Shown: piece by piece, positions 12,061 to 47,925 of the stretch
Layout of the letters: every line of letters starts with the position of its first letter
How positions within the stretch are numbered: position 1 is the first letter of the stretch
Virus record (IMG/VR): IMGVR_UViG_3300021964_000036
Location: 1 to 64,000 of that record
DNA from: a virus
Length of the DNA: 64,000 nucleotides
Reading direction: 5' to 3' (one strand)
The notes under the pieces: generated by a model
Databases searched by the model: none
The model's input: only the letters and a program-made list of their open reading frames with translations
What the model was told of the DNA's origin: nothing
Position numbers and translations under genes: made by a program

Positions 12061-15000
12061 ATGGCAAAGAAAATCAAACTGGATTTATCCCAATTTAAAG
12101 CATCAGGAGTCTATACACTTGAGTTTGACGCTTCAGAAAACGTCATCTTAACGTCCCAGACTATAAGATTGGTGGTGGGATTTTCGAATAAAGGACCTTT
12201 TAATGCTCCCGTGTATTTACCAGACGTAACTACAGCGGTAGCAATTTTTGGTGAAATCGATAAGACTTTAGAGGCTAAAGGATCTTACTTTCATAGATCA
12301 ATATTTGCGTGTTTAAACACTGGACCCGTATTTGCTTTGAATCTAATGAACCTCAATAACAATATTGACAGTCCAACTGCGGATGTTGTAAACTATTTTG
12401 GTTATTCAATCGATACTGAGCAATCGAACGGGGTTTTAACCTCTAAATTATACTCTTCTTTCTATAATAAAGAGAGATTCTGGTTTGCTGACACTGATTA
12501 TTTCCTAGCAACACTTTCTGCAGTTGACACGGGAAGACTATTTAACCTAGTTAATCTTGGTAAGGAGTCTATGAGTGTTATTGTTAGGAAGTCGACTGAT
12601 GCTGTACAACCGCTACAAGGTTTTGATGTTTTTGCAATTGATTGGTATGGAGCAGAAAACGTGCCTAGCTTCATGCACCCCTACGATTATATTTCTGACT
12701 ACTTTATTGATGTTATATCGGTATCTGGAGATTGGACTGATTATGAGACATTATCGTTAGATCCTAAATGGAGTTCTTATTTCACTAGGAATGGATTTAT
12801 TAAGAGTCAAATCAATAATTTCCTATCCCAACCAGATGTAAATATAGTTGCTTCGACAACTGGGTGTTTAATCCCAGATTTTGTTGACCTAAATGGTAAC
12901 AACCAATACATCCAAACACTTATTAACAACAATACTCCATCAACTGGATTATTCTGTGCAGTAGATGAGGATGCAATGGATGATATTTGCACTAACCCCT
13001 ATAAAATTGATCTTGTAGGACACCACTTGATTGATGAACTTACAGCAGATAGAGATATTGCTGACGCAAGACTTAATTTCTTAAGTTATGATCAGAATCT
13101 TACTGCTGACTATTTATACACCCAAAAGGTAACAACAATTACTGATGCTGCTACTGGAGCATCTGGAGCTTCTCCAGATTCAATTAACGTTGGTACCTTA
13201 TTTACAGTTGGTGCAACATCAACTTATGGAATAGGTGCTACTGCATTTGATGCTTATGATGCTTCCCTTAAATATGGTGGATTACACTATGTTATAACAA
13301 ACACTGGAGTTACTGGAGCATCTCTAACAACAGCTGAGAAGAACGAACTAGCATCTTTTGCAACTCCTAGCGCTACCTCCTCTCCATTCATTATAGGTAC
13401 TGTTACTGGTCTATCCGGATTAACTGGTTCGGTTATAAACCAATTCTCAGAAAATGATTTGGTAAAATTAAAAATAGCAGGTGTCATACAGACTGGCGGA
13501 GAAGTGCTTCTAACATGGACACACCCACTTGATACTGCATCCTATTCAGCCCAAGGCATATCAGTTACACCTTACAGTAATATGGTTGGTGCTACTTCTG
13601 GTTATGTTTCTGCTGATTACTATCAAATTACTTCTTCAGATTATCTTGACATAACTGAAGTAAATCCAGCAACAGGAGCAACTGCAGGTACACCTAATAA
13701 TGTATTAACTGGGCAGCTTAGCACTGCATTTTACCAAGACCTTTTATATGGAGAATTAGAGGACGGTGACCAGATTTGGTTAAATGATACCGGAAGTTCT
13801 GTAAACTACATTTCATACCAAAGTACAATTGATAGAGACCAATTCGCGGTTTCCTACGCTAGAACGTTTAATAATGTTTCTAGACAAAGCCCAGATCAGC
13901 TTACAGACTACCCTGCTTTTGGTACTGTTTATGCTTCTGACAATATAGGTGCTTCTGTAAGCAGCGATAAGACAGATATTATTTCTTCAGTAGGATCTAT
14001 TAACCAGTTTATCGACGTGATAACACAAATAGATCCAACTAACTTCACTATATCTTCTTCTCCTTCATCGCCAATAGCTGTTGGAGATCTTATAGTATCT
14101 ACGGATCAGGATATTTGTGAAACTGTTGGTAGCAATAGGCAATATAGGTTAACAAGAGTTACTTCAGTTGCTCAAACAACAACGCCAAACGTTGTCCAAG
14201 TAACAACTGCAAGGCCACTTTACTACTATGCTGGAAGCCCAATCCAAGTACAGAAGTTCAAATCAATTCCGCAATTTACTAGGTCTTTTGATTTCACTTA
14301 CTTAAATGGGTTTACCATGAGAGATTCTCACAGACCAAATGGTACTGATGCTAGAGTTTCTGAAATCCTTGATGTTATGTACAATACTAACATCGCAGCA
14401 ACACTTGCTGCTAAGGACGTAATATCATTCAGATACATTGTTGATACGTTTAGCGGACAAATACTTCCGAATTCTAAGTATCAATTAAGTAAGCTTGCGA
14501 TGATGAGACAAAAAGCTTTAGCACTTATCAACGCACCATCAATGGAGCAGTTTAGAGCATCTACAGATCCTAGATTTACTGATGCACCAACTCAGACTAA
14601 CCCATATCCTTCCCTGAAGGCTCAATACATTTCAGAGGGTGGTAATTTATCGCTTAATCCTTCTTATACCTTCAGTTTACCAACTGAAGACCAGGGAGCA
14701 AAATTTGCTGCGTTCTATACTCCTTATCTTACAGTAAGGGAAAACAATAGAAACGTTAATGTACCACCAGCAGCTTATATTTCTAATAACTTTGTAAGAA
14801 AATTTGCAAACGGTGAACCCTACAGTATTATTGCTGGTCAGAAAAGAGGGGTTATCTCGGGACAAAATTTAGTTGGCCTTGAATATGATTTCACTGACGA
14901 AGATAGAGGATGGTTGGAGCCAGTAGGTCTTAATCCGATTATTAAAAGAAGAGGCCTTGGCGTAGTTATCTTTGGTAACCAAACTGCTTATCAAACTGTT

Positions 15001-15348
15001 AACTCAGCATTTAACCTCGTACATGTGAGGGACCTTCTCATTAGTGTTGAGAATGATGTTGAGGAAATCATGGCAAACTATCTCTTTGATTTCAATGAGG
15101 ATTCTATCAGACTTGAAATCAAGACTTTGGTTGATAACTACCTTGATGGTGTAAGAGCTGGTGGCGGTATTTATGCTTACCAGGTTATTATGGATTCTTC
15201 CAACAATCCGCCTTCAATCATCGACCAAAACATTGGAATTATCGACGTTATTATCGAACCTGCTAGAGGTATCCAAAAGTTCATAAACAGAATTACAGTA
15301 ACAAGAACTGGTGGTATCGCTGCTGGAGGATTTATTCAGTTTGCTTAA
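12061..15348 (+). CDS. Tail sheath protein (gp18-like)
   Basis: SGVYTLEFD, VGFSNKGPFN, VPPAAY, AGQKRG, FGNQT, FDFNE. Confidence 0.93.
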   Translation: MAKKIKLDLSQFKASGVYTLEFDASENVILTSQTIRLVVGFSNKGPFNAPVYLPDVTTAVAIFGEIDKTLEAKGSYFHRSIFACLNTGPVFALNLMNLNNNIDSPTADVVNYFGYSIDTEQSNGVLTSKLYSSFYNKERFWFADTDYFLATLSAVDTGRLFNLVNLGKESMSVIVRKSTDAVQPLQGFDVFAIDWYGAENVPSFMHPYDYISDYFIDVISVSGDWTDYETLSLDPKWSSYFTRNGFIKSQINNFLSQPDVNIVASTTGCLIPDFVDLNGNNQYIQTLINNNTPSTGLFCAVDEDAMDDICTNPYKIDLVGHHLIDELTADRDIADARLNFLSYDQNLTADYLYTQKVTTITDAATGASGASPDSINVGTLFTVGATSTYGIGATAFDAYDASLKYGGLHYVITNTGVTGASLTTAEKNELASFATPSATSSPFIIGTVTGLSGLTGSVINQFSENDLVKLKIAGVIQTGGEVLLTWTHPLDTASYSAQGISVTPYSNMVGATSGYVSADYYQITSSDYLDITEVNPATGATAGTPNNVLTGQLSTAFYQDLLYGELEDGDQIWLNDTGSSVNYISYQSTIDRDQFAVSYARTFNNVSRQSPDQLTDYPAFGTVYASDNIGASVSSDKTDIISSVGSINQFIDVITQIDPTNFTISSSPSSPIAVGDLIVSTDQDICETVGSNRQYRLTRVTSVAQTTTPNVVQVTTARPLYYYAGSPIQVQKFKSIPQFTRSFDFTYLNGFTMRDSHRPNGTDARVSEILDVMYNTNIAATLAAKDVISFRYIVDTFSGQILPNSKYQLSKLAMMRQKALALINAPSMEQFRASTDPRFTDAPTQTNPYPSLKAQYISEGGNLSLNPSYTFSLPTEDQGAKFAAFYTPYLTVRENNRNVNVPPAAYISNNFVRKFANGEPYSIIAGQKRGVISGQNLVGLEYDFTDEDRGWLEPVGLNPIIKRRGLGVVIFGNQTAYQTVNSAFNLVHVRDLLISVENDVEEIMANYLFDFNEDSIRLEIKTLVDNYLDGVRAGGGIYAYQVIMDSSNNPPSIIDQNIGIIDVIIEPARGIQKFINRITVTRTGGIAAGGFIQFA

Positions 15349-15396: not shown

Positions 15397-15951
15397 ATGG
15401 CTGGTTTACCACATTACCAAAACTCCATAAACTCGGTTAATAAATTCGAGCCAGTTTATCTCAATCAGTTTGAGGTAAACGTTATACCGCCTGCGGCTGT
15501 AGCTGGAGGTCCGGTTTTGCTTGAACAGGTTGTTTCTGTAAGCGGTTTGGACGTGGATAAAAATCCTAGCTTTGTTTCCCAGAAGTACAAGTTTGCAAAA
15601 AGGAATTATGCTGGAGGTAAGCCAGACACTACTACCCTAGATCTTGGATTGAAGTTCACAGTAAACCTTGATGATGCTAATTCCATGTATGTCTTCAAAA
15701 CAATGAGGCAATGGACGGATTTAATATACAATCCATTAACAGGCGCCCAAGGTATTAAAGCTGATTACACCGGTACGATAGTGGTATCTGTATTTAATAA
15801 AAGCGGTGATGTATTCAGAAGAATTACCCTTAAGGATTGCTTCCCTCTAAAAGCAATTGATCCGATGGAGCTAGAATATGTAAATGGTACTACCCTCTAT
15901 GAAATCAATATGACTTGGGCAGTTGATTATTGGGATGATCTTTTCCTTTAA
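15397..15951 (+). CDS. Tail tube protein 1 (gp19-like)
   Basis: Follows sheath; NQFEV, RNYAG, QWTDLIYNPLTG, WAVDYW. Confidence 0.85.
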   Translation: MAGLPHYQNSINSVNKFEPVYLNQFEVNVIPPAAVAGGPVLLEQVVSVSGLDVDKNPSFVSQKYKFAKRNYAGGKPDTTTLDLGLKFTVNLDDANSMYVFKTMRQWTDLIYNPLTGAQGIKADYTGTIVVSVFNKSGDVFRRITLKDCFPLKAIDPMELEYVNGTTLYEINMTWAVDYWDDLFL

Positions 15952-15967
15952 AATAAAAAAAGCATAA

Positions 15968-16546
15968 ATGGCAGGCTTACCACATTTTAATAACTCTAAG
16001 GCAGCAAGGAATAACTACGAACCGGTTTTCTTAAATCAGTTTGAAGTTTTGATTACCCCACCAAATGGAATAAATCTTGCTAACACCACTTTTAAGGGAG
16101 AAAACATTCTCACTCAGCAAGTGAAGAGTATATCTGCCCTGCAAGTTGATATACAACCGGCAGATGCTGTAACACAGTACTATAAGTTTGCAGAAAGAAG
16201 ATACGCTGGTGGTGAACCTTCAACTTCTGATGTGCAATTTAATATGTCTTTTGAGGTAAACCTGAATGACGATAATTCTATGGTCCTTTATAAGGTTTTA
16301 AGACAGTGGTCTGACCTAATATACAATCCATTAACTGGAGCAATGGGTTTAAAAAGAGATTATGTGGGTTCGATGGTAGTTTCAGTATTCAATAAACAAG
16401 GTGATGTTTTTAGAAGGATTACTCTTAATAATTGTTTTTTAGTAGAACCAATTACACCAATGAACCTTTCTTATGATACTGGTGATGCCCTCTACACGAT
16501 CGACACAACTTGGAAGTCTGATTACTGGAACGATCTATTCCTATAA
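15968..16546 (+). CDS. Tail tube protein 2 (paralogue)
   Basis: Colinear with tube 1 (MAGLPH, QWSDLIYNPLTGA, GDVFRRITL). Confidence 0.85.
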   Translation: MAGLPHFNNSKAARNNYEPVFLNQFEVLITPPNGINLANTTFKGENILTQQVKSISALQVDIQPADAVTQYYKFAERRYAGGEPSTSDVQFNMSFEVNLNDDNSMVLYKVLRQWSDLIYNPLTGAMGLKRDYVGSMVVSVFNKQGDVFRRITLNNCFLVEPITPMNLSYDTGDALYTIDTTWKSDYWNDLFL

Positions 16547-19956: not shown

Positions 19957-20574
19957 ATGGCAAAAGAAAAAAACATACAAATTCTAGCTGAAAGCTTCAT
20001 TCAGACTAGAGGAGAGAGGGAATTCAAGTACCTCTACGAAAGAGTAAAACCAGGGGTATTAAATCATTGTTACGGTATTTTGAAAGACTTTGAGCTAGCG
20101 GAGGATGCTTTCCTTAATGCTATGTCGAAGGTCTGGCAAAAGATAGAACAATATGATAGCGAGAGAGGGAATTTTTCTACGTGGTGTTACAACATTGCTA
20201 GAAATGAATCTCTACTTTTGCTAAAAAGCAGAAAAAGATATATTTCTCAATCTTCTGAAGAGATGGAATACACTTCTGCAAAGGCAGAAGAAAAGAACAG
20301 ATCATATGACATTGAAGACGATCCTCTTTGGGATTTCCTTTCGGGAGGTAGCGATATAGATGATGTATATGAGCAAGTAATAGACGAAATTAAGGAACTT
20401 CCGGATATCTATCGTGATATAATGATCGATCGTGAAATAAATGGTATGAAATACAAAGATATTGCTATTAAATACGATATAAAGAAGAGATCAATTGCTA
20501 CAAGAATTAGAAGAGCTCGTACTAAGATCAGAAAGAAGATGGAGGATGCTATGGGTAAATCTGATTTCAAATAA
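19957..20574 (+). CDS. ECF-type sigma-70 family RNA polymerase sigma factor
   Basis: Region 2 (AEDAF...FSTWCYNIARN) and region 4 (MKYKDIA...IATRIRRAR). Confidence 0.88.
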   Translation: MAKEKNIQILAESFIQTRGEREFKYLYERVKPGVLNHCYGILKDFELAEDAFLNAMSKVWQKIEQYDSERGNFSTWCYNIARNESLLLLKSRKRYISQSSEEMEYTSAKAEEKNRSYDIEDDPLWDFLSGGSDIDDVYEQVIDEIKELPDIYRDIMIDREINGMKYKDIAIKYDIKKRSIATRIRRARTKIRKKMEDAMGKSDFK

Positions 20575-24803: not shown

Positions 24804-24865
24804 TTTTTCCAAAAAACCTGGATTGGTTGGAATATATAATGGAAAAGTTTCAATATCGCAGGTGT

Positions 24866-24873
24866 GATATATA
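24866..24873 (+). promoter_or_regulatory. Putative late promoter GATATATA
   Basis: Overlaps the GTG chosen by the ORF track, favouring ATG 24897. Confidence 0.65.
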
Positions 24874-24896
24874 AAAAGCAAAAAAACACAAGTAGA

Positions 24897-27689
24897 ATGG
24901 ACTTACTTAATCAATTAAAAACTCTTAGGGAAACAACCACTAATCCTGAGGTTAAATCGATTTGCGAATCCCACATTAATAAAATACAAAATGGGGAATC
25001 TGTAAATGAATCCGCAATCCTTGAATCTGTTGACCAGGTAGTAAAGGAAAGCGAAGGCGAAACCGCTGCAAACCCTATCGAAATGCTAAGACAGCAAGAA
25101 ATAGAAAGATCTAAATCAGCAGCTCAAAGGCTAATGGAGTCTTGGGGTGGAATTGGATCTAATTCTTCTAGAAATTCAGGATCTTATGTAGATGGTAAGA
25201 AAGAAGATACTGCGGAGGTTACTAATATTTCAGAGAGTCTTAAAGAGGTAGCAGAAAAGGATCCTTCAGCTAAAGCATTCCTCGATTCACAGGCAGTTAA
25301 CAACCTTGGCGTTTATGAGTCTATTCTATCTTTAAAAGGAACAGGTATTTATGAACATCCAAATGTTAAGATACTTTGTGAAAAGTTCACTCACCTTCTA
25401 AAGAATAATAATACCCCTGAATTTTTATTAGCAGAGGCATTTGTCCAAGAACTACAAAACTTCAACTGGGATAACAAAGTAAAAGCTGCTGTAGAAGCAA
25501 TTAAGGAAAATATTGCTTCACTTAGACCTGAAATTGAGGTTTCAAAAGCTTTATATTCTATCGAAAAGAACGCTGGTTCTGATTTTTATTCGCCAGTAAC
25601 AGAATCTCTGAATAAGTGGTTGATATCAGAGAATAAGTCCGTTGCACTTTTGTCCAAAGAGATCTCAAGATGGTCTTTCAACCCAACGGTAAGAAATCTT
25701 GTGAATACGCTTTCTCTAATGGAATCTTCAGAGTCTAAGCTAAGTATTCCTGTAAACAACGGAAATTCTTCGGTGAGGAAAGTTTATTCTCCAGTTCATG
25801 TTGCTGGTGGCAAAACTGTATTTACTATTGGTAACAACGTATTTGAAGGTAACTCTGAGGGAATCAAGAGACTTTCAAATGTTGAATATGCTTCTCTACC
25901 AGAAGAGTTTAGATCTTTGCTAGAGTCATTCTATTCTCCGATGGTTAAGATAAATGAGAGTGGTTTAAGTTTCTATGTTGGAAACAGCAGCTTTAAGATA
26001 GTGGAAGAGTCTGATTCGGTATCAATATATTCTAGGGATAATAAGATTAACTTTAGTGACAAAACTCAGCTGGCTAAGCAGATAGCTCTAGAAATATCTG
26101 GAAGCTTAGGAGTTAACGAATCAAAAGCGGTTTCTGACATAATTAACCTTTATGAAAACTTCTCAAATGTTGTTGAACTTGATTTTGCTAAAAGATTAGA
26201 GTCTAAAGTTTTCGAAGGTGTAGCAGTAAACTTGATTAAATGGAACTCAAACCTTTACCTCAACAGGATCAATGAAGGTATGAATGAGAATTCCTTATTC
26301 CAAGTAAACGGTACACAAGCTACTTCGATGGTTAAGGATCTGATGAAATATGATATTTCTGAAGGACTAACGGAGTTCTTGGATGGAGAGAACAGGATTA
26401 AGTCAATTATGCTTAATGACAGAAAGCAAATTATTGATAACATCGCTATCGTTGAAAACGAGATTAACAAAATCTCACAAGCAATGTCTACAAACCCACT
26501 TTATGAAAATTCTAAAGAAATGGTAAGAGCTAAGCATATGCTTGAGCAAGAACTATCTTCTCTTAGAAAAAAATGGGCAGCAGTTAATGAAGAGATCGAA
26601 AAAATAGAATCTTCTTCTGTTGAGGTAGAAGAGATAAACGAGGATCAGAAATTCAATGTTGGTGATTACGTAAAAGTTAAAGAGTCTGGAAATACTGGAA
26701 AGATTATTTCTATGGATAGCACATCTGGATCTTACACTGTTTTGATGGATAATGGAAGAACCGGTGATTTCAGAATGGATGAGATTGTTGATATTGAAGA
26801 AGCTTTAAAATCTGCTGGTGAAGAAAATCAGGAAGCTGATGAAACCCAGGAAGATGTTAAAGAGAACGAATCACCAATTGAAACTTCTGAGGAAATTCTA
26901 GAGGATACTTTAGAAGAGTCTTCTCATGATATGGCAGTAGCTCCAGAGAACAAAACAGCATCTGAAAAGGATAAAACTCCAGCCGCTACATTAAAAGCAA
27001 ATACCTCTGAGGCACCTTCGTCTAAAGATCAAGACGAAGATGGTAAAAAGGACATTGAAAAGGAAGATCATGCTAATTTGGAAGAAGCACCTGAAGGAAT
27101 TGAGAAAGGGACTGATTATAGTGTCAAGCTTAAAGACTCTTTGGTAGATGAGGTCGGATATAACGTAAACGAAAATACCGAAGAAGTTGAGTCGGCTGAC
27201 AACGAAATGTCTTCAGCACCTGCGGAAGGAAATTCAGAGTTATCTGAAAGAGACGTTGAAAACACAGATCAGCAATTAGCTGAAGCCCCAGGCGGAAGAT
27301 CTCATGCTGATTATGATGTAAAATCTGTTAAAGGTGAAGAGTCAAACCCAGATATGGTAAAAACAGACCCAGATATGGCATCTGCTCCTGGTGACGGTAC
27401 AGATAAAGAATTACACCACGAAATTAGTGGAGAGATGGGATATAACCTTGATGAAGCGGATGACGTGGAAAAAACAGACCAGCAATTAGCAGTTGCTCCT
27501 GGTGGTGAGCACAAAGCAGAATATGATGTTGAAGTAGCTAAGGCAGAAAAAGCAGCAGCTGATATCATGAAAACCAACCAGGAATTAGCAGAAGCACCAG
27601 CAGCTGGCACTGATGCTGAAACAGATGTAGAGGTTAACACAGAAATGGGATATAACCTTGACGAAAGCGAAGAGTCAAAAAAAAACTAA
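24897..27689 (+). CDS. Large acidic head-core/internal protein with SH3/KOW-like segment and AP-containing repeats
   Basis: Many (I/L/V)NE sites, FNVGDYVKVK..GNTGKI, repeats such as QQLAEAPGG and EMGYNLDE. Confidence 0.7.
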   Translation: MDLLNQLKTLRETTTNPEVKSICESHINKIQNGESVNESAILESVDQVVKESEGETAANPIEMLRQQEIERSKSAAQRLMESWGGIGSNSSRNSGSYVDGKKEDTAEVTNISESLKEVAEKDPSAKAFLDSQAVNNLGVYESILSLKGTGIYEHPNVKILCEKFTHLLKNNNTPEFLLAEAFVQELQNFNWDNKVKAAVEAIKENIASLRPEIEVSKALYSIEKNAGSDFYSPVTESLNKWLISENKSVALLSKEISRWSFNPTVRNLVNTLSLMESSESKLSIPVNNGNSSVRKVYSPVHVAGGKTVFTIGNNVFEGNSEGIKRLSNVEYASLPEEFRSLLESFYSPMVKINESGLSFYVGNSSFKIVEESDSVSIYSRDNKINFSDKTQLAKQIALEISGSLGVNESKAVSDIINLYENFSNVVELDFAKRLESKVFEGVAVNLIKWNSNLYLNRINEGMNENSLFQVNGTQATSMVKDLMKYDISEGLTEFLDGENRIKSIMLNDRKQIIDNIAIVENEINKISQAMSTNPLYENSKEMVRAKHMLEQELSSLRKKWAAVNEEIEKIESSSVEVEEINEDQKFNVGDYVKVKESGNTGKIISMDSTSGSYTVLMDNGRTGDFRMDEIVDIEEALKSAGEENQEADETQEDVKENESPIETSEEILEDTLEESSHDMAVAPENKTASEKDKTPAATLKANTSEAPSSKDQDEDGKKDIEKEDHANLEEAPEGIEKGTDYSVKLKDSLVDEVGYNVNENTEEVESADNEMSSAPAEGNSELSERDVENTDQQLAEAPGGRSHADYDVKSVKGEESNPDMVKTDPDMASAPGDGTDKELHHEISGEMGYNLDEADDVEKTDQQLAVAPGGEHKAEYDVEVAKAEKAAADIMKTNQELAEAPAAGTDAETDVEVNTEMGYNLDESEESKKN

Positions 27690-27916: not shown

Positions 27917-28276
27917 ATGGCAAAGGCTTACGTAAGAAATAAAGATCTGATGGCTGCAGTATTAGAGTCAAAAGAAAAAGGAGAACTTACTTCAGAGACT
28001 ATAGAGATGTTTGGTCTTATGGTTCAGGGTATATCTAAAAAGATGGCATATAGGGATCCCGAAGACAAAGCTGATTGTATGGCTTTTGCAATGGAGGATC
28101 TTTGCAAATATTGGAATAGATTCAATCCAGAAAAATCAAACAATCCGTTTGCTTACTATACACAAATAGCAAAAAATGGGTTTGCTAAGGGGTGGAAAAA
28201 AATACATCCTCCGAAGGCACCTAAAACAATACCATTTTCATATATCACTGGAGACGACAATACGTATAATGTGTAA
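27917..28276 (+). CDS. Late-transcription sigma factor (T4 gp55-like)
   Basis: YVRNKDL and RFNPEKSNNPFAYYTQI signature. Confidence 0.85.
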   Translation: MAKAYVRNKDLMAAVLESKEKGELTSETIEMFGLMVQGISKKMAYRDPEDKADCMAFAMEDLCKYWNRFNPEKSNNPFAYYTQIAKNGFAKGWKKIHPPKAPKTIPFSYITGDDNTYNV

Positions 28277-28278
28277 GA

Positions 28279-28764
28279 ATGCCAGATATAAAGAAAATAA
28301 AACCCAATGGGGATTATAAATCTGGACTGTATGTACCACAGAACCCAGATAAATATATCGGTGATGTTCACAATATAATATGTAGGTCCTCTTGGGAATT
28401 TAGATTCTGTCGCTATTGTGACAATAACGATCGCATCTTGAAATGGAGCTCAGAGCCAATATCAATTCCTTATTACAACCCTCTTGATAAAAAAGAGCAC
28501 CAGTACCATGTTGATTTTTACATGCAAGTGCTAAAGGACGATGAGCAAACTCAGGATTGGATTATTGAGGTAAAACCAGAAAAGCATTTTAAGAAACCTA
28601 TTCTTGAGGGTAATAGTACTTTAAAGAAGTTAAAGTCTTATAATCACAAGATGCAAATTTGGATTACCAATCAGGCTAAATTCAAAGCAGCTCAGAGGTG
28701 GGCAGATGCTAGGGGCTATAAATTTGGTGTGGTTGATGAGAATTTTTTATTTAAGAGCAAGTGA
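28279..28764 (+). CDS. Head completion nuclease (T4 gp4-like)
   Basis: PQNPDKYIGD, RSSWE, WSSE, YHVDF, IEVKP, NQAKFKAA. Confidence 0.85.
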   Translation: MPDIKKIKPNGDYKSGLYVPQNPDKYIGDVHNIICRSSWEFRFCRYCDNNDRILKWSSEPISIPYYNPLDKKEHQYHVDFYMQVLKDDEQTQDWIIEVKPEKHFKKPILEGNSTLKKLKSYNHKMQIWITNQAKFKAAQRWADARGYKFGVVDENFLFKSK

Positions 28765-29366
28765 AATCCTTTGAAGATCAAATAAAGGATCTAAGGTCCC
28801 AATATTCGTCAATAGCACAACTATCCTCTGAATCCAACACTTACTTCAAAAAAAGGTATGGACCTGGAGGTGAAGGAGGGACTTTGGATTTTAATGGAAA
28901 TTTTATACCTGGTAAGATCTATACTTGTGAATATAAAACAAAAACAAGAATATCCGATAAAACCCCTTTTATAGACAGATCTCCGATATTCATCTTTATG
29001 AAGAAGGAGAGATATAAGGGTTCCGAAATTCTAATATCTGTTGATCTAAATGTTATTCCACCTGATTATAGGGGAAATATTATGTTTAAACTATGGGATC
29101 AGTACTCCTCATTATTTAAAGACAACTCTAAATTACCATACACATCTCAAATACCTATTACTAACATAACAACTTCTTTTAATAGATTACTTGCTGGAAC
29201 TGGGTTTCAAACAGCGTTAACTGGATTCAAAAGGGAATATGCTGATAATATTAAGGTAGTTGACTATAAAGATTGGGTAAGAATTCCATACCTTTCTGAT
29301 TTTATAATAGAGGGTCAATCTACTAACGGGATATATAATGATTATAGATCGAAATTAAATGCTTAA
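28761..29366 (+). CDS. DNA end protector-like protein (T4 gp2-like)
   Basis: PGKIY..EY, PFIDRSP, DLNVIPP..R; adjacent to gp4. Confidence 0.55.
   Translation: MKSFEDQIKDLRSQYSSIAQLSSESNTYFKKRYGPGGEGGTLDFNGNFIPGKIYTCEYKTKTRISDKTPFIDRSPIFIFMKKERYKGSEILISVDLNVIPPDYRGNIMFKLWDQYSSLFKDNSKLPYTSQIPITNITTSFNRLLAGTGFQTALTGFKREYADNIKVVDYKDWVRIPYLSDFIIEGQSTNGIYNDYRSKLNA
29330..29337 (+). promoter_or_regulatory. Putative late promoter GATATATA for portal genes
   Basis: Motif 64 nt upstream of portal 1 start. Confidence 0.55.
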
Positions 29367-29400
29367 CATTTAGTACAAAAACTAGATTACAAAATTGTAA

Positions 29401-31020
29401 ATGGCCGGATTTAACGAAAACCAAGAAGGAAGCCCGATATTCCAAAGAATCAGAGAGTCTGTAAAGTCCCTCAGTAACTTTGGTATGCGTTATGGCGACA
29501 TGGTGATTAAGAATTCCCAGGCAATCGGAACTACGGAGGCTGAATTCATGAAGAGGCAATCTGTCGATGACGAAAGTTTGCTATATTCATTAGGCCGACA
29601 AGATACCACAACAAGGCAGTTTATTGGTTATTACGATAAGGATTATGCAGGTAAGAGGGATTATCTTCGAAAGTTTGCACTTAATCCTGAGATAGAATAC
29701 ATTCTAGATACTGTTTGTGATGAATCTATAACTTTTGACTCCTATAATTTCTTTGCGTATCCAGCTTTCCTGAACCTTACTGATGTTAAAGATAAAGTTA
29801 AGGATAGAATACAAGAGAACTATAAGAAGCTTTACGACATGTTTGGCTTCACTGATGATATTACTGCCTGGCAGTATTTCCGCCAATTGATGGTAGACGG
29901 ATTCTTAGCCTTTGAGATTGTTTATGATGATAAGGGTAAGGGAATAATTGGGTTTAAAGAACTTGATGCTACAACACTAATGCCTTCGGTCGAAAAACAA
30001 CCTGATGGTACTTATTTAAATGTTTGGTATCAATATCCAAAGGACATCAATAAGAGGAGAATGCTTTATGATTCCCAGATTATTTACATATCCTTTGCTA
30101 AAGGTAATACGGTTTCAAGAGTTAGCTACGTTGAGAGACTAATAAGACCTTACAACGTACTAAGAATAATTGAATATACCAGGGTTATTTGGTCTGTAAT
30201 GAATGCTTCATTTAGAATGAAGATGACTGTTCCTATTGGTTCTAGATCTCCCCAAAAATCTATGCAAACCTTGGGCGAGCTTATGAGCATTTATAAGGAG
30301 GACATTAGATTTAATGATGAAAGTGGTGAATTAACAGTAGATGGTAGACCCAAGATACAATTCTATAAGAATTACCTTATGCCTTCTGGTGTCAACGGTA
30401 CACCAACTATAGAGCCCATTAATAATGCTGGTCCTAATTTAAATGATCCGCAGCCGCTTGCTTATTTTTATGATAAACTTGTCCAAGAATCCAAAGTACC
30501 TTTTTCCAGATTCCAAGGTCCTGATGGTGGGTCTATTGGAAACTATTCAAACGGAGCAGAGGGACTTGACAAGGAGGAAATAAGATTTGGTAAGTTCATA
30601 AGTAGACTGAGGTCAATCTTCCAAGATATCCTGGTTAAGCCACTATGGATACAAATGTGTAAGGATTTTCCCGAACTTGAGAAAGATTATCTATTTAAGA
30701 GTCAACTTGGTCTTGAATATGTTTCTGACAATCCTTTCAGAGTCAATCAGGAAATTGAAGCTATGCTTAAGAAAAAGGATCAAATCGATGGAATGTATGG
30801 GTTAATTGACGATTCTGGTGAACCTTTTTTCTCTCTTGCATATCTTATAGAATCTCATTTAGGAATGAATGCTGATGACATTAAAGCTAATAGAGAAGCA
30901 AGAGAAAAAAGGAAAGAGGAGGAAGCTAAGAAAGCGAAAGAAGAAGGTGCTGAGCCGGAAGAAGAAGGTGCTGAGCCGGAAGAAGAGTCTCCAGCAGAAG
31001 AAACACCCCCTCAAGAATAA
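29401..31020 (+). CDS. Portal protein 1 (gp20-like)
   Basis: LRKFALNPEIEYILD, QLMVDG, SYVERLIRPYN.LR, KVPFSRF, EEIRFGKFISRLR. Confidence 0.9.
   Translation: MAGFNENQEGSPIFQRIRESVKSLSNFGMRYGDMVIKNSQAIGTTEAEFMKRQSVDDESLLYSLGRQDTTTRQFIGYYDKDYAGKRDYLRKFALNPEIEYILDTVCDESITFDSYNFFAYPAFLNLTDVKDKVKDRIQENYKKLYDMFGFTDDITAWQYFRQLMVDGFLAFEIVYDDKGKGIIGFKELDATTLMPSVEKQPDGTYLNVWYQYPKDINKRRMLYDSQIIYISFAKGNTVSRVSYVERLIRPYNVLRIIEYTRVIWSVMNASFRMKMTVPIGSRSPQKSMQTLGELMSIYKEDIRFNDESGELTVDGRPKIQFYKNYLMPSGVNGTPTIEPINNAGPNLNDPQPLAYFYDKLVQESKVPFSRFQGPDGGSIGNYSNGAEGLDKEEIRFGKFISRLRSIFQDILVKPLWIQMCKDFPELEKDYLFKSQLGLEYVSDNPFRVNQEIEAMLKKKDQIDGMYGLIDDSGEPFFSLAYLIESHLGMNADDIKANREAREKRKEEEAKKAKEEGAEPEEEGAEPEEESPAEETPPQE
30940..30981 (+). 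repeat. Perfect 21-nt tandem duplication (EEGAEPE x2)
   Basis: gaagaaggtgctgagccggaa twice. Confidence 0.9.
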
Positions 31021-31030
31021 GAAATAGAAG

Positions 31031-32632
31031 ATGGCAGGTTTTTTAGATTACGTACAGGAACGATCCTTTTTAGGCAACCTTTATAAGAATTTGTCTAAGA
31101 TAGGCAGATTTGGGATGGAGTACGAGGATATGGTTATTCGTAACTCTCAAGCTGTTGGTGCTACTGAATCTAATTTTTTTAATGAGCAAGGTACCGGGTT
31201 TACCGAGAATAATGCATTCTATTGGACGCTAGGATATCAGGATACAAAGGTAAGAAAATACATTGCTTACTTTGATAAGGACTATTTAGGAAAAAGAGAC
31301 TTTCTGAGAAAGTTTTCATTAAATGGTGAGATTGATTTTATTCTCGATACACTAACTGATGATGCTATAAACTTTGATGATAAGAACTTTATTGGTTACC
31401 CCTCTCTTGCAAACATAGACATCAAGCCAGAGTTGGTTGATAAGATAGATGATGTTTATCGAAATATTTATATGCTTTTTGGCTTTCAGCAAGGTATAAC
31501 AGCATGGCAGTATTTTAAGCAATTCCTAGTTGATGGCTTCTTAGCCTTTGAGATAGTGTATTCTACTGATGGAAAGAAAATTGTTGGGTTTAAAGAACTT
31601 GATCCCACATCTTTACAACCCGCTACTGAACCACAGCCAAATGGTGAGTTCCAACAAATTTGGATACAATATCCGGAGGACAATAAGATGACTCGAAAAC
31701 TGAAGAGTGAGCAGGTCATTTATATTTCGTATGCAAAGGGAAATACGATTTCTAGAGTAAGCTATGTTGAAAGGTTGATTAGATCCTATAACATTTTAAG
31801 GATCATGGAAAATACCAGGGTTATTTGGAATGTGATGAATGCCTCTTACAGACTTAAGTTTGTTATCCCAGTTGGTTCTCAGTCTCAACAAAAAGCCATG
31901 CAAACTCTCGGGCAGCTAATGTCTGTTTATAAGGAAGAGATGGAAATAAACGATTCATCTGGCGAACTAACTGTAAATGGTAGACCAAAGGTTCAATTCT
32001 ACAAGAATTATCTTTTCCCGGAAAAGGACGGACAATCCCCACAAATAGAGACGTTAGATCCGAATGGCCCTGATTTCAATGTAATGGACAATGTTCTTTA
32101 CTTCTACAATAAATTAAAACAGGATTCCAAAATTCCTTATGCAAGGTTCGCTAATAGAAATGGAACACCTGCTAATTACCAGATAAGCATAGATCAATTA
32201 GAAAGGGATGAAATAAGGTTTGAAAAATTCCTTACCAGACTTAGATCAATTTTCCAAGAGATATTGGTAAAGCCATTGTATATTCAGATGTGTCTTGATC
32301 ACCCGGAGTTAGCTAAGGACAGGAATTTCAAATCCAATCTTGGATTAAGCTACACGAGGGAGAACATGTTTGAAGAATTTATCCAACTTCAGAACTATAC
32401 CAAGAGAGTGCAGTTTATAAACGACCTTGGAGAGATGAAGCAGAAAATAGGGGAAGAGGAAGAATCCTATTTCGACAAAGACTTCTTAATAAAAAGATAC
32501 CTTGGTTTAACCGTGGACGAGTACAAGAAGAACGAAAAATACAAAGAAATCGAATCTAAAATAGCCGAGGAAAAAGCTAAGAGTCAAGAATCTTCAGGTG
32601 GTGACGAAGGTGGTGAGTCATTTACCCTCTAA
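31031..32632 (+). CDS. Portal protein 2 (gp20-like paralogue)
   Basis: Colinear with portal 1; KIPYARF, RDEIRFEKFLTRLR. Confidence 0.9.
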   Translation: MAGFLDYVQERSFLGNLYKNLSKIGRFGMEYEDMVIRNSQAVGATESNFFNEQGTGFTENNAFYWTLGYQDTKVRKYIAYFDKDYLGKRDFLRKFSLNGEIDFILDTLTDDAINFDDKNFIGYPSLANIDIKPELVDKIDDVYRNIYMLFGFQQGITAWQYFKQFLVDGFLAFEIVYSTDGKKIVGFKELDPTSLQPATEPQPNGEFQQIWIQYPEDNKMTRKLKSEQVIYISYAKGNTISRVSYVERLIRSYNILRIMENTRVIWNVMNASYRLKFVIPVGSQSQQKAMQTLGQLMSVYKEEMEINDSSGELTVNGRPKVQFYKNYLFPEKDGQSPQIETLDPNGPDFNVMDNVLYFYNKLKQDSKIPYARFANRNGTPANYQISIDQLERDEIRFEKFLTRLRSIFQEILVKPLYIQMCLDHPELAKDRNFKSNLGLSYTRENMFEEFIQLQNYTKRVQFINDLGEMKQKIGEEEESYFDKDFLIKRYLGLTVDEYKKNEKYKEIESKIAEEKAKSQESSGGDEGGESFTL

Positions 32633-32643
32633 TTATTAGTTAG

Positions 32644-33651
32644 ATGCATCTAAAAGAAAGATTAGCTTCAAAGACCATATTGGTCGTTGGTGATATTATT
32701 CTGGATCACTACATTTATGGTAAAGTTTATAGGGTTTCCCCAGAAGCTCCAGTTCCTGTTGTCCTTAAGGATAAATCTACATATTGTTTAGGAGGATCAG
32801 CTAATGTTGCCCAAAACATAACATCCTTTGGAGCAAAATGTTATTTACTTGGGGTAGTTGGTGAGGATAGTACTGCTATAAAAATTCATAACCTTTTATC
32901 TGAGAAAGAGGTCCTACCAATGCTTGTAAAAGACCCTTCGAGACCAAGTACGGAAAAAACAAGAATTATTGGGAATGGTCATCAGATAGTAAGAATAGAT
33001 TCTGAAGTTGATGTTAATGTCTCTGAAGAAATATCAGATAAGGTATTTGAAATGTTCATGTCTATAGTGGAAGACCTGGATGGTGTAATTATTCAGGATT
33101 ATGGTAAGGGATTGCTCAGTAGATCTTTGGTTAAAAGGATTTTACAAGAGACTAAGGAAAGAAACATACCAACACTTACTGATCCCAAGGATAAAGATTT
33201 TTCTAAATATACAGGATCTGATTGGATTAAGCCAAATTTCTTAGAATTTAAGGATTCCCTTGGCATTCCTTCAAACAGATCTTTGGATTCTTTGGATGTT
33301 ATAAAGTTAATTGACGAACTTAAGCAAAAATTTAACCTAAGCAGTGTACTTTTGACACTCTCTGAAAATGGGATGATTGCAAGGTCTAAGTTTGATTTTG
33401 AATCTATTGATGGTATCCAGATAGAGGTAACTGATGTTTCCGGTGCTGGTGATACGGTAAGTGCTGTTTTTATGCTTCTTTTATCCAGTAATATTTCTCT
33501 TAAGGATTGCTTAAGAATATCCAACCTTTCTGGATCTATCGTTTGTCAAACATCTGGGGCTATTCCGATTGACATTAATACCCTATTCTCTACCTTGCAT
33601 AAATACTCTTGGATTGTGAGTGATAAAACGGGGGAACCAGTTCTCCTATAA
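32644..33651 (+). CDS. rfaE: Heptose-7-phosphate kinase (RfaE/HldE domain I, PfkB family)
   Basis: VVGDIILDHY, RVSPEAPVPV, GGSANVA, QDYGKG, DPK, DVSGAGD. Confidence 0.9.
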   Translation: MHLKERLASKTILVVGDIILDHYIYGKVYRVSPEAPVPVVLKDKSTYCLGGSANVAQNITSFGAKCYLLGVVGEDSTAIKIHNLLSEKEVLPMLVKDPSRPSTEKTRIIGNGHQIVRIDSEVDVNVSEEISDKVFEMFMSIVEDLDGVIIQDYGKGLLSRSLVKRILQETKERNIPTLTDPKDKDFSKYTGSDWIKPNFLEFKDSLGIPSNRSLDSLDVIKLIDELKQKFNLSSVLLTLSENGMIARSKFDFESIDGIQIEVTDVSGAGDTVSAVFMLLLSSNISLKDCLRISNLSGSIVCQTSGAIPIDINTLFSTLHKYSWIVSDKTGEPVLL

Positions 33652-45918: not shown

Positions 45919-47925
45919 ATGAACGAGTCTTTATTGAATGAAAATCTCCTCTTTATCCTTGAAAAGCAAGATAATAGTCTTTCTGTCAACGATAAAAACG
46001 AAGATGGCTATGTACTCAAAGGTATAGCAGCACAATTTGGAAAGGAGAATAATAATAACAGAATCTATGAGGAAGGTGAATACCTACCCCATTTGGAGTA
46101 CCTAAAAGATAAGATAGGTCAGAAAAGATTGGTTGGTGAATTAGACCATCCTGAAAAATTCGATGTTTCTCTTAAGAACATTTCTCACGTTGTTGAAGAC
46201 CTTGTTTATGATAAAGACGGAAGAGTATTAAATATTAAGGTTCGTTTGCTTGACACACCAGCTGGACAAATTGCTAAGAAGCTAGTTGATGCTGGTATCC
46301 CTCTTTCTATTTCATCTAGAGCAGCTGGAAATGTTGGTCCTGATAAGAAGGTCCAAATCAAAAAAATCTTTACATACGATCTAGTAGCAGATCCTGGTTT
46401 TCAGGATGCTCAACTTGAAAGAGTTTACGAGAGTGCTGGTTTTGATGCTTTTGAATTTCAAGAAAGGTCAAAGAAGTCAATCGTAAACAACTTAGAGTGT
46501 GTAAACGAATCGCTAGGTTTAGAAAATGAATCTGGAGTGAAGATATATAAAGTTGAAAATAGCGAAGAATTCGAAAAAATCCTTAATCAAGACAAAAATA
46601 AATCCAACATTATGGAGGCCAACAAAGAATATGTTACTGCTGACGAGCTTAATAAGTATTCTATCTTTTTGAAAAATAAGATGGATGAGCTTGAAACGCA
46701 GATTTCTGAAATGAAACAACAAGAAACTCAAGTTTCTGAAAGTGAAAACGACAGTGTAGACTGTAAAGCGCTCGAGGAAAGGGTTGCTAAATTAGAGAAG
46801 TACTCCGAGTATCTTGCTGAAAATCTAGAAAGCGCTATCAAGTACGGCGAGTATTTGGCAGAAAATCTAGATAGCAGCATTACTTATTCTAAGTATCTTG
46901 CTGAGAATTTAGACAAGACTATCTCTTATTCAAAGTATTTGGCCGAAAATGTTGATAAGGGTATTTCTTATACCGAATATGTAGCTGAGAATGTTGATAA
47001 GTCTATTGATTATTCTAAGTATTTAGCAGAAAAACTAGACGATGGTATTCAATACACAGAATACGTGGCTGAAAATCTTGATAAGAATATAGCTTACTCT
47101 GAGTATCTAGCAGAAAATGTTGATAAGAACATTGCTTATTCTGAGTATTTGGCAGAGAATCTTGATAAGGGTATTTCTTACTCTGAATATCTTGCAGAGA
47201 ACTTGGATAAAGGAATCGCTTATTCTGAGTACATCGCAGAAAAATTAGATCAAGGCATTAATTACACAGAGTATCTTGCTGAAAATCTAAACAAAGGTAT
47301 CGCTTATTCCGATTACCTAGCTGAAAAGCTCAATGGCAATATTGCTAACACTGAAGCTCTTCACGAAAGCGCAAAGACAGAAAAAACTCCAACACTAAAC
47401 GAAAGTGCTAGAGAAAATGCTGAAAGCGCATCTAAAACTGAATTGGTTGAATCAGGATTTGCTGGAGATTATGAAAATCTCGGAAGCAAAATTGATTCTC
47501 TAATTGAATCAGTCAAAACACAAAAGACTGAGGAAAATATAAACGAGGCACAAACGAAAGTTATGCCGACTGCTCAAACACAAAAAGCAGATGAGGCAAT
47601 CAACGAAGCCAAAGAAGAAAAATTGGTAGAGTCATCAGGTCACAAGTTTATTGATGAAATGCCAGAAGATTACGCTCCGTTATGGGAGTCACTAAATGAA
47701 AGCCAAAAGCAATCAGTGATTGCACAATCAGCTTTCTATAACTTAGAGACTACATATCAGATCAAGAATTTCTGGTCAACACGTCAGCTTGGTGCTAAAC
47801 CAGTGGGACTTCAGAAACTTCAAGAGAGCCAAGAAACACCAGAGCCTAAGACGGCTACAGCCCCTCAGGGGTATTCAAATGATTACCTTAATTGGGTCGC
47901 TAAGTCGCTCGAAGGTAAGTTTTAA
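45919..47925 (+). CDS. Prohead protease (gp21-like) fused to scaffold-like repeat region
   Basis: NNRIY, GELDHP, DTPAG, ISSRAAG, TYDLVADPG; coiled-coil C-terminal part. Confidence 0.9.
   Translation: MNESLLNENLLFILEKQDNSLSVNDKNEDGYVLKGIAAQFGKENNNNRIYEEGEYLPHLEYLKDKIGQKRLVGELDHPEKFDVSLKNISHVVEDLVYDKDGRVLNIKVRLLDTPAGQIAKKLVDAGIPLSISSRAAGNVGPDKKVQIKKIFTYDLVADPGFQDAQLERVYESAGFDAFEFQERSKKSIVNNLECVNESLGLENESGVKIYKVENSEEFEKILNQDKNKSNIMEANKEYVTADELNKYSIFLKNKMDELETQISEMKQQETQVSESENDSVDCKALEERVAKLEKYSEYLAENLESAIKYGEYLAENLDSSITYSKYLAENLDKTISYSKYLAENVDKGISYTEYVAENVDKSIDYSKYLAEKLDDGIQYTEYVAENLDKNIAYSEYLAENVDKNIAYSEYLAENLDKGISYSEYLAENLDKGIAYSEYIAEKLDQGINYTEYLAENLNKGIAYSDYLAEKLNGNIANTEALHESAKTEKTPTLNESARENAESASKTELVESGFAGDYENLGSKIDSLIESVKTQKTEENINEAQTKVMPTAQTQKADEAINEAKEEKLVESSGHKFIDEMPEDYAPLWESLNESQKQSVIAQSAFYNLETTYQIKNFWSTRQLGAKPVGLQKLQESQETPEPKTATAPQGYSNDYLNWVAKSLEGKF
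46801..47337 (+). repeat. 13 tandem 42-nt (14-aa) coding repeats, consensus YSEYLAENLDKGI(S/A)
   Basis: Counted from the translation; last copy partial. Confidence 0.92.

Follow-up and report, generated by a model that had tools for sequence, protein, structure and literature searches.

The portal is a molecular machine that is present in single copy and is a hallmark of tailed phages and herpesviruses: it starts capsid assembly, anchors the packaging motor, acts as a gate for the DNA and connects to the tail. Its gene, g20, serves as a diversity marker. To our knowledge all solved portals consist of twelve copies of one chain arranged in a ring. The T4 portal protein gp20 (Pfam PF07230; PDB 3JA7, 6UZC, 9MKB, 9LU6/9LU7) is encoded by one gene. 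Passages of the published structural accounts describe its clip β-sheet and tunnel loops as contacting neighbouring subunits and lining the channel, and its wing periphery and N-whisker as facing the capsid (PMC4493910, PMC7136217); the clip is given there as the docking site for terminase and neck, and packaging is described as requiring both the tunnel loop and the basic residues R338 and K342 (PMC4493910). Among 1,069 phage records matching the first of the two genes described below, 1,067 have a single portal place, while LR756501 and LR756503 show a second matching place but encode one full-length portal each, the second place in LR756501 being a 101-aa fragment. Here we describe an uncultured T4-like jumbo phage in which, as in four near-complete relatives, this single-portal-per-genome habit of characterised T4-type portals is broken.

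A tandem pair of T4-type portal genes

The window, i.e. the whole stretch of 64,000 nucleotides analysed here from an 82,491-base IMG/VR record, encodes two proteins of the T4 gp20 family in tandem on the plus strand: portal paralog A (positions 29401..31020, 539 aa) and portal paralog B (31031..32632, 533 aa), each with an ATG start. The two are colinear from residue 1 to about 530 in a BLASTP alignment with 268/536 identities (50%), 69% positives and 12 gap positions, and have in common the motifs SYVERLIRPYNVLRI (A) / SYVERLIRSYNILRI (B) and ELTVDGRPKIQFYKNYL (A) / ELTVNGRPKVQFYKNYL (B). Both match the Pfam Portal_T4 profile (PF07230) far above its curated cut-off of 22.9 bits and over nearly its entire length, A at profile positions 7-432 of 433 (E 1.8e-58, 198.7 bits) and B at 9-429 (E 1.2e-63, 215.8 bits), and they are the only matches to this profile in the record. 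PHROG 213 ('portal protein') likewise matches both (E 6.3e-58 for A, 1.1e-60 for B). A preliminary description had proposed two intact, diverged and colinear gp20-like genes at this place, and the open reading frames, BLASTP, Pfam and PHROG all agree with it. It had further held that the pair is neither an assembly duplicate nor a split gene; both of these artefacts are ruled out by the 50% identity, the full length of each copy and the recurrence of the arrangement on 67 other metagenomic contigs.

The best PDB match for A and B, by sequence as well as by fold, is T4 gp20. In phmmer searches only T4-type portals were matched (E 7e-11 for A, 7e-18 for B), and in Foldseek searches with AlphaFold2 (AF2) models the gp20 chains came out on top (E 5.7e-16 and 4.4e-17, respectively), with TM-scores to gp20 of 0.36-0.55 that come from monomer models of modest quality (pLDDT 60.7 for A, 64.3 for B). 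In a colinear alignment the wing, stem, clip, tunnel loop and crown are all present in both proteins in the domain order of T4 gp20, from the N-terminal region to the crown, and the predicted secondary-structure elements follow the same order in the two. Each keeps an N-terminal MAGF, which is also common to the single-copy portals of the related lineages L085, L086, L088 and L090, and A additionally carries an acidic repeat tail. On the strength of these profile and model comparisons we consider both copies to be complete gp20-type portals. The difference from T4, which has one portal gene, lies in the presence here of two full-length paralogs; in structural alignments the identity of each to gp20 is about 16-21%.

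The gene-neighborhood is also T4-like, and the portals sit among head, neck and packaging genes, all those with coordinates given here lying on the plus strand. Upstream are found an 850-aa protein with a gp13/gp14-type neck domain (6818..9370; PHROG 679 'head closure Hc2', E 3.4e-8; Pfam PF11649 at 24.7 bits, slightly below its cut-off of 25), the large terminase (10161..11957; PHROG 5989, E 6e-53), a sheath gene and two tail-tube genes. Closer to the pair follow a gp55-like late sigma factor (27917..28276; PHROG 234, E 1.2e-13), a gp4-like head-completion ('head closure') gene (28279..28764; PHROG 218, E 1.4e-45; a TnsA-like nuclease fold in Pfam) and, directly 5' of A, a weak match to the gp2-like DNA end protectors (28761..29366; PHROG 429, E 6.3e-6), which had no Pfam match. 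Downstream lie a gp21-like prohead protease (45919..47925; PHROG 207, E 1.3e-32) and a gp23-like major capsid protein (47951..49672; PHROG 28442, E 4.1e-80; also PHROG 138 'major head protein'). The large terminase is expected to be the docking partner of the portal clip, and the 850-aa neck-domain protein its partner once packaging ends. An all-against-all comparison within the record detected no paralog of the large terminase or of the major capsid protein.

Several features of the locus point to transcription of A and B as one unit. Only 10 nucleotides (31021..31030) separate the stop of A from the start of B, and the gap measures 2-23 nt in all 57 of the complete pairs from related loci; a scan of this junction found no terminator-like site and no plus-strand promoter-like site. 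An 8-nt motif, GATATATA, which had first been found in upstream alignments, occurs at 29330..29337, 71 nt 5' of the start of A and within the 3' end of the preceding gene. The window contains 16 copies of it, all on the plus strand, against 3.6 +/- 2.3 expected (0/100 shuffles reach 16), and 12 of these lie 25-87 nt 5' of an ATG-initiated open reading frame. Across the related loci there are 75 copies on the plus strand and one on the minus strand; the motif was found at most 120 nt upstream of A in 40/41 distinct loci and upstream of B in 0/41, a conservation that could partly be accounted for by its location within coding sequence in most of them. We therefore regard GATATATA as a candidate late promoter on the basis of its distribution. 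The T4 late promoter consensus TATAAATA, which was dropped in its favor, is not enriched (3 matches against 7.6 expected, none of them on the plus strand), and a sigma-70-type promoter scan was uninformative (14 matches against 21.8 in shuffles). Directly 3' of B is a gene for a PfkB-family sugar kinase (32644..33651; Pfam PF00294, E 1.2e-27), which is probably the last gene of the portal transcription unit: a hairpin followed by a T-rich tail (33630..33647) is the only terminator-like site on the plus strand between 27600 and 33800, although the consensus scan behind it is weak evidence, with 2 overlapping matches against 4.0 expected. Taken together, A and B are probably co-transcribed.

Origin and retention of the two copies

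The preliminary description had asked for the phylogeny and dN/dS of both copies, and the resulting tree places them as sister clades. The A clade and the B clade are each supported at 100/100, and they are joined as sisters at 91/93, a support that falls short of decisive. Outside them lie the single-copy portals of the L076, L085/86 and L088/90 groups and of LR756500, with the root placed on LR756501. The tree comprises 14 A/B pairs spanning the clade (drawn from 35 distinct A and 33 distinct B sequences), the pair of L091 and 7 single-copy portals; L092, which is identical to L091, and L077 were left out. The stem branches of the two clades are symmetric (0.52 and 0.56), and the A and B subtrees are largely mirror images. 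Identity between A and B stays at 47-53% in every lineage in which both copies are complete, which indicates that there is no gene conversion between them, while orthologs within the clade diverge down to about 64% identity. These sequence relationships indicate that the A/B pair is the product of one old duplication. Horizontal transfer of either A or B from another phage is disfavored by the mutual closest relationship of A and B and by the largely mirrored subtrees.

None of the related loci has lost a copy. A followed by B, both in open frames, was found at 67 of 73 related loci; of the other six, 3 are truncated at contig ends and 3 come from a single-copy lineage. Sporadic loss of one copy among close relatives, which the preliminary description had named as one observation that would speak against it, was not seen in 67/67 informative contigs, nor in two further loci, L091 and L092, which have both copies, nor in four near-complete genomes (230-319 kb), each with exactly two adjacent full-length portal matches. 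Furthermore, purifying selection on both A and B is strong (omega about 0.01-0.03), and their rates of evolution are equal. Over bins of rising dS (n = 4, 7, 7 and 25 pairs) the median NG86 dN/dS is 0.019, 0.012, 0.030 and 0.014 for A and 0.034, 0.021, 0.021 and 0.009 for B; the bins are small, most pairs being saturated or identical, and these values refer to core columns (A 1-497, B 1-501), with pairs of dS <=0.05 in both copies dropped and saturated pairs kept outside the bins. The dN values of the two copies are tightly correlated (r = 0.99, slope 0.97).

Divergence along the DNA channel and a proposed mixed ring

The positions fixed differently in A and B are concentrated in the stem, clip and tunnel loop and are few in the wing. 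They occupy 19 of 146 stem, clip and tunnel-loop columns vs 2 of 212 wing columns (Fisher p = 1.7e-6, which overstates the significance because neither columns nor sequences are independent), and the same regional split was seen again in a second count; across the clade the two counts give 25-26 such sites. In these counts the T4 domain limits, as given in part of PMC4493910, were transferred through an alignment of less than 20% identity, which leaves the N-terminal and crown assignments unreliable, and the fixed differences were placed by this alignment and not on a three-dimensional interface, the AF2 monomers having pLDDT <50 in the clip and stem. Among 25 fixed differences the ancestral state is found in A at 7 and in B at 7 (and at 3 more weakly), with 8 unresolved. 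At T4 positions 285, 336 and 356, for instance, A has Met or Leu where B has Phe. Two channel motifs illustrate the pattern. The inner-clip motif P-x-K-D/N-G is present in B and in each of the 4 nearest single-copy lineages and has been lost from A, whose inner clip loop lacks the basic residue; the equivalent basic residues of T4 are R338 and K342 (PMC4493910). The tunnel-loop motif AEG is kept in A (as the ancestral AEGLD) and in 3 of the 4 lineages, and is replaced in B by a derived, more basic loop. The two copies thus keep different ancestral channel motifs and retention is complementary, whereas the single-copy huge-phage relatives have one full-length portal that combines the inner-clip K and the AEG motif in one protein.

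The conservation of two portal genes throughout the clade suggests a DNA-entry ring made of two kinds of subunit. Our best reading, unproven and with about an even chance of being correct, is that A and B are working subunits of a single mixed, i.e. hetero-oligomeric, ring; the equal purifying selection, apparent co-transcription and complementary motif retention would all fit such a ring. The preliminary description had offered such a ring, for example in an alternating 6+6 order, alongside specialised portals for packaging and ejection or for two particle types, and its interpretation is supported in part. Under this proposal A and B would be made together from one late transcript and would co-assemble at the portal vertex of the capsid. 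After an ancient tandem duplication each copy would have given up or altered its own set of ancestral features, both in the DNA channel and in the regions of subunit contact, with A losing the basic inner-clip residue and B rebuilding its tunnel loop in a more basic form. Given such complementary changes neither copy alone would fully replace the ancestral portal, and both would be kept. Co-assembly, a division of labor and any fixed 6+6 order are points that we infer. A complex prediction for A(1-497) with B(1-501), run without controls, counts neither for nor against binding (score 0.02, mark 0.32).

A more specific version of the mixed ring is tentative and rather doubtful. It would have an obligate alternating A6B6 portal of six-fold instead of twelve-fold symmetry, in which B provides basic inner-clip DNA capture and A a tunnel-loop valve, and which arose together with a tail tube of two paralogs. 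The latter are adjoining genes (15397..15951, 184 aa, PHROG 32623 and the tail-tube PHROG 45; 15968..16546, 192 aa) whose products are 55% identical. Beside the portal, the tail tube is thus another ring-forming virion component whose gene is duplicated in this clade, and the relatives with a single-copy portal have one tail tube per genome. We also considered that an alternating ring might hard-wire the 12-to-6 step at the neck. This finds no support in T4, where, in the portions of the recent neck structure reports that bear on it, the gp13 ring is strictly 12-fold on the portal (PMC12929629), the step falls between gp13 and gp14 (PMC12929629, PMC12929587) and the C6 symmetry of PDB 9LU6/9LU7 stems from gp14 and Hfq (PMC12929587). 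The idea is speculation only, and the same accounts of the T4 portal offer no precedent for alternating portal states.

The mixed ring has to be weighed against two separate homo-dodecameric portals with different jobs, one for prohead nucleation and packaging and the other for another particle type, vertex or stage, an explanation that we regard as unlikely. In its favor, every portal domain and the capsid-facing N-terminus are kept in both copies, and their wings differ: the net charge is about -4.1 in A against -0.3 in B, some 4 units apart, and 37/212 wing columns are conserved in one copy only (20 in A but variable in B, 17 the reverse). Such wing differences could equally reflect different surroundings of two separate rings. 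The clip differences could in turn mean different partners, given that the clip of T4 docks terminase and neck in the part of the structural account concerned (PMC4493910), and the duplicated tail tube could be matched to a head-tail joint of a second type. However, genes 2-23 nt apart behind one candidate promoter would be made together and at similar levels, and paralogs with 50% identity and conserved cores that are for the most part common to both would stay apart only if both mixed interfaces were disfavored. Moreover, terminase, major capsid protein and protease were each found only once in the record, a count from 82 kb that are only about 29% complete, and the basic inner-clip residue is missing from A and the ancestral tunnel-loop motif from B, features that every single-copy relative combines in one protein. 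We know of no tailed phage with two portal vertices.

Less probable still is that only one copy is the true portal and that the other is a portal-derived accessory, such as a chaperone or nucleator, a transient plug or a decoy for terminase or neck, rather than a stoichiometric component of the ring. Related huge phages do carry short portal-fragment-like open reading frames (that of LR756501 mentioned above and a weak 106-aa clip-region match in a 482-kb relative), which would suggest that this group has put pieces of portals to other uses. An accessory role would, however, predict asymmetric divergence and the loss of some domains, whereas both copies are full-length in every lineage with the same very low dN/dS and a slope near one, and the stem branches and the polarity of change (7 vs 7) are symmetric. 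Redundant or dosage copies that mix randomly or substitute for each other with no functional difference appear very improbable. A fresh tandem duplicate of a ring subunit does, as a general principle, co-assemble by default right after the duplication, but redundancy normally ends with a copy being lost or the two being homogenised; here there are 0 losses in 67/67 loci, no sign of gene conversion and 25-26 sites fixed differently between the copies clade-wide.

Relationship to known portals and paralogous rings

The nearest single-copy relatives are the portals of LR756500 (462 kb, 44.6% identity) and of the 482-kb IMG/VR lineage (about 52%), followed at greater distance by those of the Lak phages (36%) and of LR756501 and LR756503 (735 kb, 35%). 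The hosts of relatives, together with the absence of a Shine-Dalgarno motif, would hint that this phage may infect Bacteroidota. Neither literature phrase searches, whose reach leaves most subscription journals outside, nor the relevant part of PMC7824862 yielded a description of a phage whose portal is heteromeric or encoded by two paralogs. In a bioRxiv preprint (10.1101/2025.06.28.662109) the corresponding wording concerns 'two portal-associated proteins' only. Should the ring of this phage be mixed, it would be a natural portal of reduced symmetry, and DNA capture, the valve, motor docking and neck docking would become genetically separable functions located on different chains. If the doubtful A6B6 arrangement were true, it would give a virus a heteromeric portal for the first time and, with the paired tube, the path of the DNA from capsid to tube would be lined throughout by structures made of paired subunits. 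Whatever the composition of the ring, two portal paralogs per genome would count as two lineages in g20 surveys.

Within T4 itself the capsid offers a parallel, in that two copies of a structural virion protein arose by duplication and have both been kept. The major capsid protein gp23 and the vertex protein gp24 are paralogous and form separate capsomers, hexamers and pentamers respectively, and so take distinct positions in one particle. We know of no such positional split for a portal, which occupies one vertex. A closer likeness is to the proteolipid ring of the fungal V-ATPase, CCT, the proteasome and MCM2-7, which are hetero-oligomeric rings that arose by duplication of homomeric subunits and whose mixed composition is biochemically proven. 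One duplication of a ring subunit with both copies always retained, the pattern of such paralog rings, is found at this locus as well. The likeness extends to symmetric divergence and complementary loss, with the difference that the mixed ring of the phage is proposed from comparative data; if it exists, it would add a viral example of ring complexity growing through duplication and complementary loss.

Paired portal genes in a T4-like genome

Two intact ORFs lie on the + strand of the window, portal A (29401..31020, 539 aa) and portal B (31031..32632, 533 aa), separated by a spacer of 10 nt and coding for proteins that share 268 of 536 residues (50%) and are colinear from residue 1 to their acidic tails. 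Both cover nearly the entire Pfam model PF07230 (Portal_T4, gp20; E 1.8e-58 for A and 1.2e-63 for B) and match PHROG 213 'portal protein'. These results confirm the preliminary description of two intact, colinear portal ORFs, and the shared motifs quoted there are found in both proteins. T4-type portals were the sole matches of either protein in a PDB sequence search, and fold searches with AF2 models (pLDDT 60.7 for A, 64.3 for B) ranked T4 gp20 chains first (E 5.7e-16 and 4.4e-17, respectively) at modest TM-scores of 0.36-0.55. No recognisable Shine-Dalgarno sequence precedes either start, the leaders being A/T-rich (29367..29400 and 31021..31030); together with relatives infecting Prevotella and Tenacibaculum, this hints at a host from the Bacteroidota.

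The window makes up the opening 64 kb of an 82,491-base IMG/VR record with a CheckV completeness of 29%. Since related contigs reach 230-319 kb at an estimated completeness of 85-100%, it belongs to a jumbo phage. Among deposited genomes the nearest all come from uncultured huge phages, namely LR756500 (462 kb, 44.6% identity), LR756501/LR756503 (735 kb, ~35% identity) and Lak (36% identity). Comparison with the T4 record revealed a T4-like gene order, comprising a protein with a gp13/gp14-type neck domain (6818..9370), the large terminase (10161..11957), the sheath (12061..15348), two tail-tube genes (15397..15951 and 15968..16546), a gp55-like late sigma factor (27917..28276, PHROG 234), a gp4-like head-completion protein (28279..28764) and a weakly matching gp2-like gene (28761..29366), followed by portals A and B. 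A PfkB sugar kinase gene (32644..33651) comes directly after portal B; genes for DNA ligase and clamp loader follow, and the prohead protease (45919..47925) and the major capsid protein (47951..49672) are encoded farther downstream. A second sigma-factor-like gene, of the RpoD type (19957..20574, PHROG 1740), differs from the gp55-like one. A glycosyltransferase-like cluster (1741..6748), including a family-9 heptosyltransferase-like gene (5567..6748), adjoins a 'minor coat protein' gene, and with the PfkB kinase behind portal B it hints that the phage encodes a pathway for sugar (possibly heptose) modification.

Distribution, phylogeny and constraint

When A was compared by tblastn with 50,697 phage records, 1,069 of them matched, at 1,071 places, and no deposited phage in this set had two full-length gp20-type portals. 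A second place was found solely in LR756501 and LR756503, which have the same length and match coordinates, and in LR756501 it is a 101-aa C-terminal fragment rather than another portal. This short ORF (L007, LR756501.1 15166-15351) matches the C-terminal part of the portal profile only (E 1.8e-5), and a 106-aa ORF in G005, a 482-kb single-portal relative (260068-260241), gives a weak match confined to the clip region (E 5.6e-4); both may be portal-fragment mini-genes.

Searching viral contigs with B recovered 73 distinct loci. In 66 of these an A-type ORF has a B-type ORF directly behind it, both as single open frames; the incomplete copies among them (4 of A, 6 of B) lie solely at contig ends. 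One further locus (L041) retains the final 90 residues of A at the contig edge, bringing those with both genes to 67. Three are uninformative, as L010 and L019 start 20-30 nt before B and L079 stops inside A, and three (L076-L078) have a single portal 47-49% identical to A and to B. Two more two-copy loci (L091, L092) came from a second scan, as did further single-copy lineages (L085-L087, one of them the 482-kb genome, and L088-L090). In whole-record searches all four near-complete two-copy genomes had exactly two adjacent full-length portals, and the 482-kb genome, LR756500 and LR756501 had one each. The sporadic loss of one copy contemplated in the preliminary description was thus checked, and neither A nor B proved to be lost or broken in any lineage, all 67 loci keeping both.

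Orthologs are 64% to 95% identical to the window's A and B. Between A and B, identity is 47-53% wherever a lineage has both complete, a constancy that shows no gene conversion. In a quick tree built from the 72 distinct proteins, support was 99 for the A clade, 99 for the B clade and 93 for the two combined. A careful tree with 37 rows, of which 15 were A, 15 were B and 7 were single-copy, took the 735-kb phage as its root. Here the respective values were 100/100, 100/100 and 91/93, with the single-copy portals outside A+B and near-equal stem branches of 0.52 and 0.56, and the main groups within the A subtree reappear within the B subtree. Support for the monophyly of A+B is good but not decisive, and the topology points to a single duplication in tandem, placed at the root of the clade, after which the two copies diverged in parallel.

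Selection was gauged by NG86 dN/dS (own implementation) over the core columns of codon-aligned sequences from the 57 complete pairs. Median values for A and B were 0.019 and 0.034 at dS 0.05-0.3 (4 pairs), 0.012 and 0.021 at dS 0.3-0.8 (7 pairs), 0.030 and 0.021 at dS 0.8-1.5 (7 pairs), and 0.014 and 0.009 at dS 1.5-3, which is near saturation (25 pairs). Across pairs dN of A tracks dN of B with r = 0.99, much of which reflects shared phylogeny, and a slope of 0.97, which shows that neither copy is relaxed. Phylogeny and dN/dS, which the preliminary description had suggested as a check, yield sister clades with low ratios in both.

The tail-tube genes, tandem paralogs of 184 and 192 aa with 55% identity, are the sole paralog pair in the 82-kb record besides the portals. 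Two adjacent tube genes occur in all four near-complete two-portal genomes, and one in each of three complete single-portal genomes; three fragments fall outside this tally, two being matchless and one a two-portal contig ending inside its sole tube match. The two duplications fall in the same region of the tree and so amount to one evolutionary coincidence, not to a statistical association. Both duplicated genes nevertheless form rings of the DNA conduit, which makes the coincidence notable.

Sites of divergence and candidate late transcription

With domain limits transferred by alignment from T4 (PMC4493910, section 6), identity between A and B is 40% in the N-terminal region, 60% in the wing, 67% in the stem, 58% in the clip, 31% in the tunnel loop and 20% in the crown. 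Fixed differences, where A and B differ and each is at least 90% conserved within its copy, number 26 (25 once more sequences were added) and affect 7 of 39 columns in the stem, 8 of 81 in the clip, 4 of 26 in the tunnel loop and 2 of 212 in the wing; the enrichment of the first three over the wing has a Fisher p of 1.7e-6, which is optimistic in treating columns as independent. According to PMC4493910 (sections 6, 8 and 9), the T4 clip has a beta-sheet built from strands of neighbouring subunits and is the docking site for the terminase and later the neck, and the tunnel loops contact neighbours and contribute to setting the 12-mer count. A and B thus appear differentiated mainly at contacts with subunits, DNA and partners. 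Counting against this simple picture, 37 wing columns are conserved in one copy only, and the wing net charge is -4.1 in A and -0.3 in B.

With four single-copy lineages as outgroups, the ancestral state at fixed-difference sites is kept by A at 7 and by B at 7 (plus 3 weakly), 8 being assignable to neither. The inner clip loop reads P-x-K-D/N-G in B and all four outgroups, and PSGVNG in A; alanine replacement of R338 and K342 in the T4 inner clip abolishes packaging, and section 9 of PMC4493910, which reports this, describes these charges as not conserved in other portals. Conversely, the tunnel loop keeps AEG(L)D in A and three of four outgroups and reads IDQLE in B, whose loop is more basic (net charge +2.2, vs 0.1 in A and 0 or -1 in outgroups). 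Three clip sites (T4 positions 285, 336 and 356) have Met/Leu in A vs Phe in B, a pattern that would be consistent with complementary packing, provided that the residues face one another.

The gap from A stop to B start is 2-23 nt in 57/57 complete pairs. In consensus scans around the pair, the junction lacked any + strand promoter-like site, and the first terminator-like site was the one at 33630-33647, in the closing stretch of the kinase gene. The T4 motif TATAAATA is not enriched; GATATATA, in contrast, occurs 16 times in the window, always on the coding strand (e.g. at 6766, 12026, 17869, 29330, 38756, 45885, 49738 and 59959; expected 3.6 +/- 2.3, with 0/100 shuffles reaching 16). For twelve copies an ATG-ORF starts 25-87 nt downstream, and the neck, sheath, protease and portal A genes are among these ORFs. 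It is present at most 120 nt upstream of A in 40 of 41 distinct related loci and upstream of B in none, with 75 copies on the + strand and 1 on the - strand over these loci. In most loci the copy ahead of A falls within the 3' end of the preceding gene, and it is still present in L058 and L060 despite a different upstream context. Its placement suggests that GATATATA is a candidate late-promoter element of the clade in place of T4's TATAAATA, and that A-B(-kinase) would form a single late transcript.

One GATATATA site (46542..46549) lies inside the 668-aa prohead protease gene; by analogy with the internal translation start annotated in gene 21 of T4, a shorter internal product is possible. 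A strongly acidic 941-aa protein (24864..27689) matches no PHROG family and has internal repeats in which LAEAP/APGG...DYDV and EMGYNLDE segments recur; judging from a GATATATA site at 24866, its true start is probably the ATG at 24897.

Possible organization of the portal ring

The gene-level facts on A and B are solid. A single ancient duplication with universal retention, strong and equal constraint with symmetric divergence, and complementary retention of channel features along with putative co-transcription support the view that A and B are two essential, non-interchangeable subunits made together. Simple redundancy fits poorly with universal retention and fixed differences, and we consider it highly improbable. 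That one copy has become a portal-derived accessory protein is similarly at odds with the symmetry of constraint and divergence, and is doubtful. Two separate homo-dodecamers, one of A and one of B, would accommodate the wing differences and the duplicated tail tube; this arrangement is still rather unlikely, as co-expressed paralogs would have to avoid one another and a portal ring would need a second role, for which we know of no precedent in any phage.

The two-portal arrangement is genuine and robustly conserved, a variant form of a core viral machine that is apparently undescribed in print: full-text literature, including a jumbo-phage review and a preprint but few subscription journals, yielded nothing relevant on two-portal or heteromeric-portal phages. 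The simplest and best-supported reading, yet an unproven one to which we give about an even chance, is a mixed ring in which A and B chains complement each other; strict 6+6 alternation, a subset of such rings, is a more tentative proposal. Duplication of a portal gene would then have been followed by divergence of A and B until their chains complemented each other in one mixed ring, much as other rings became heteromeric through subunit duplication.
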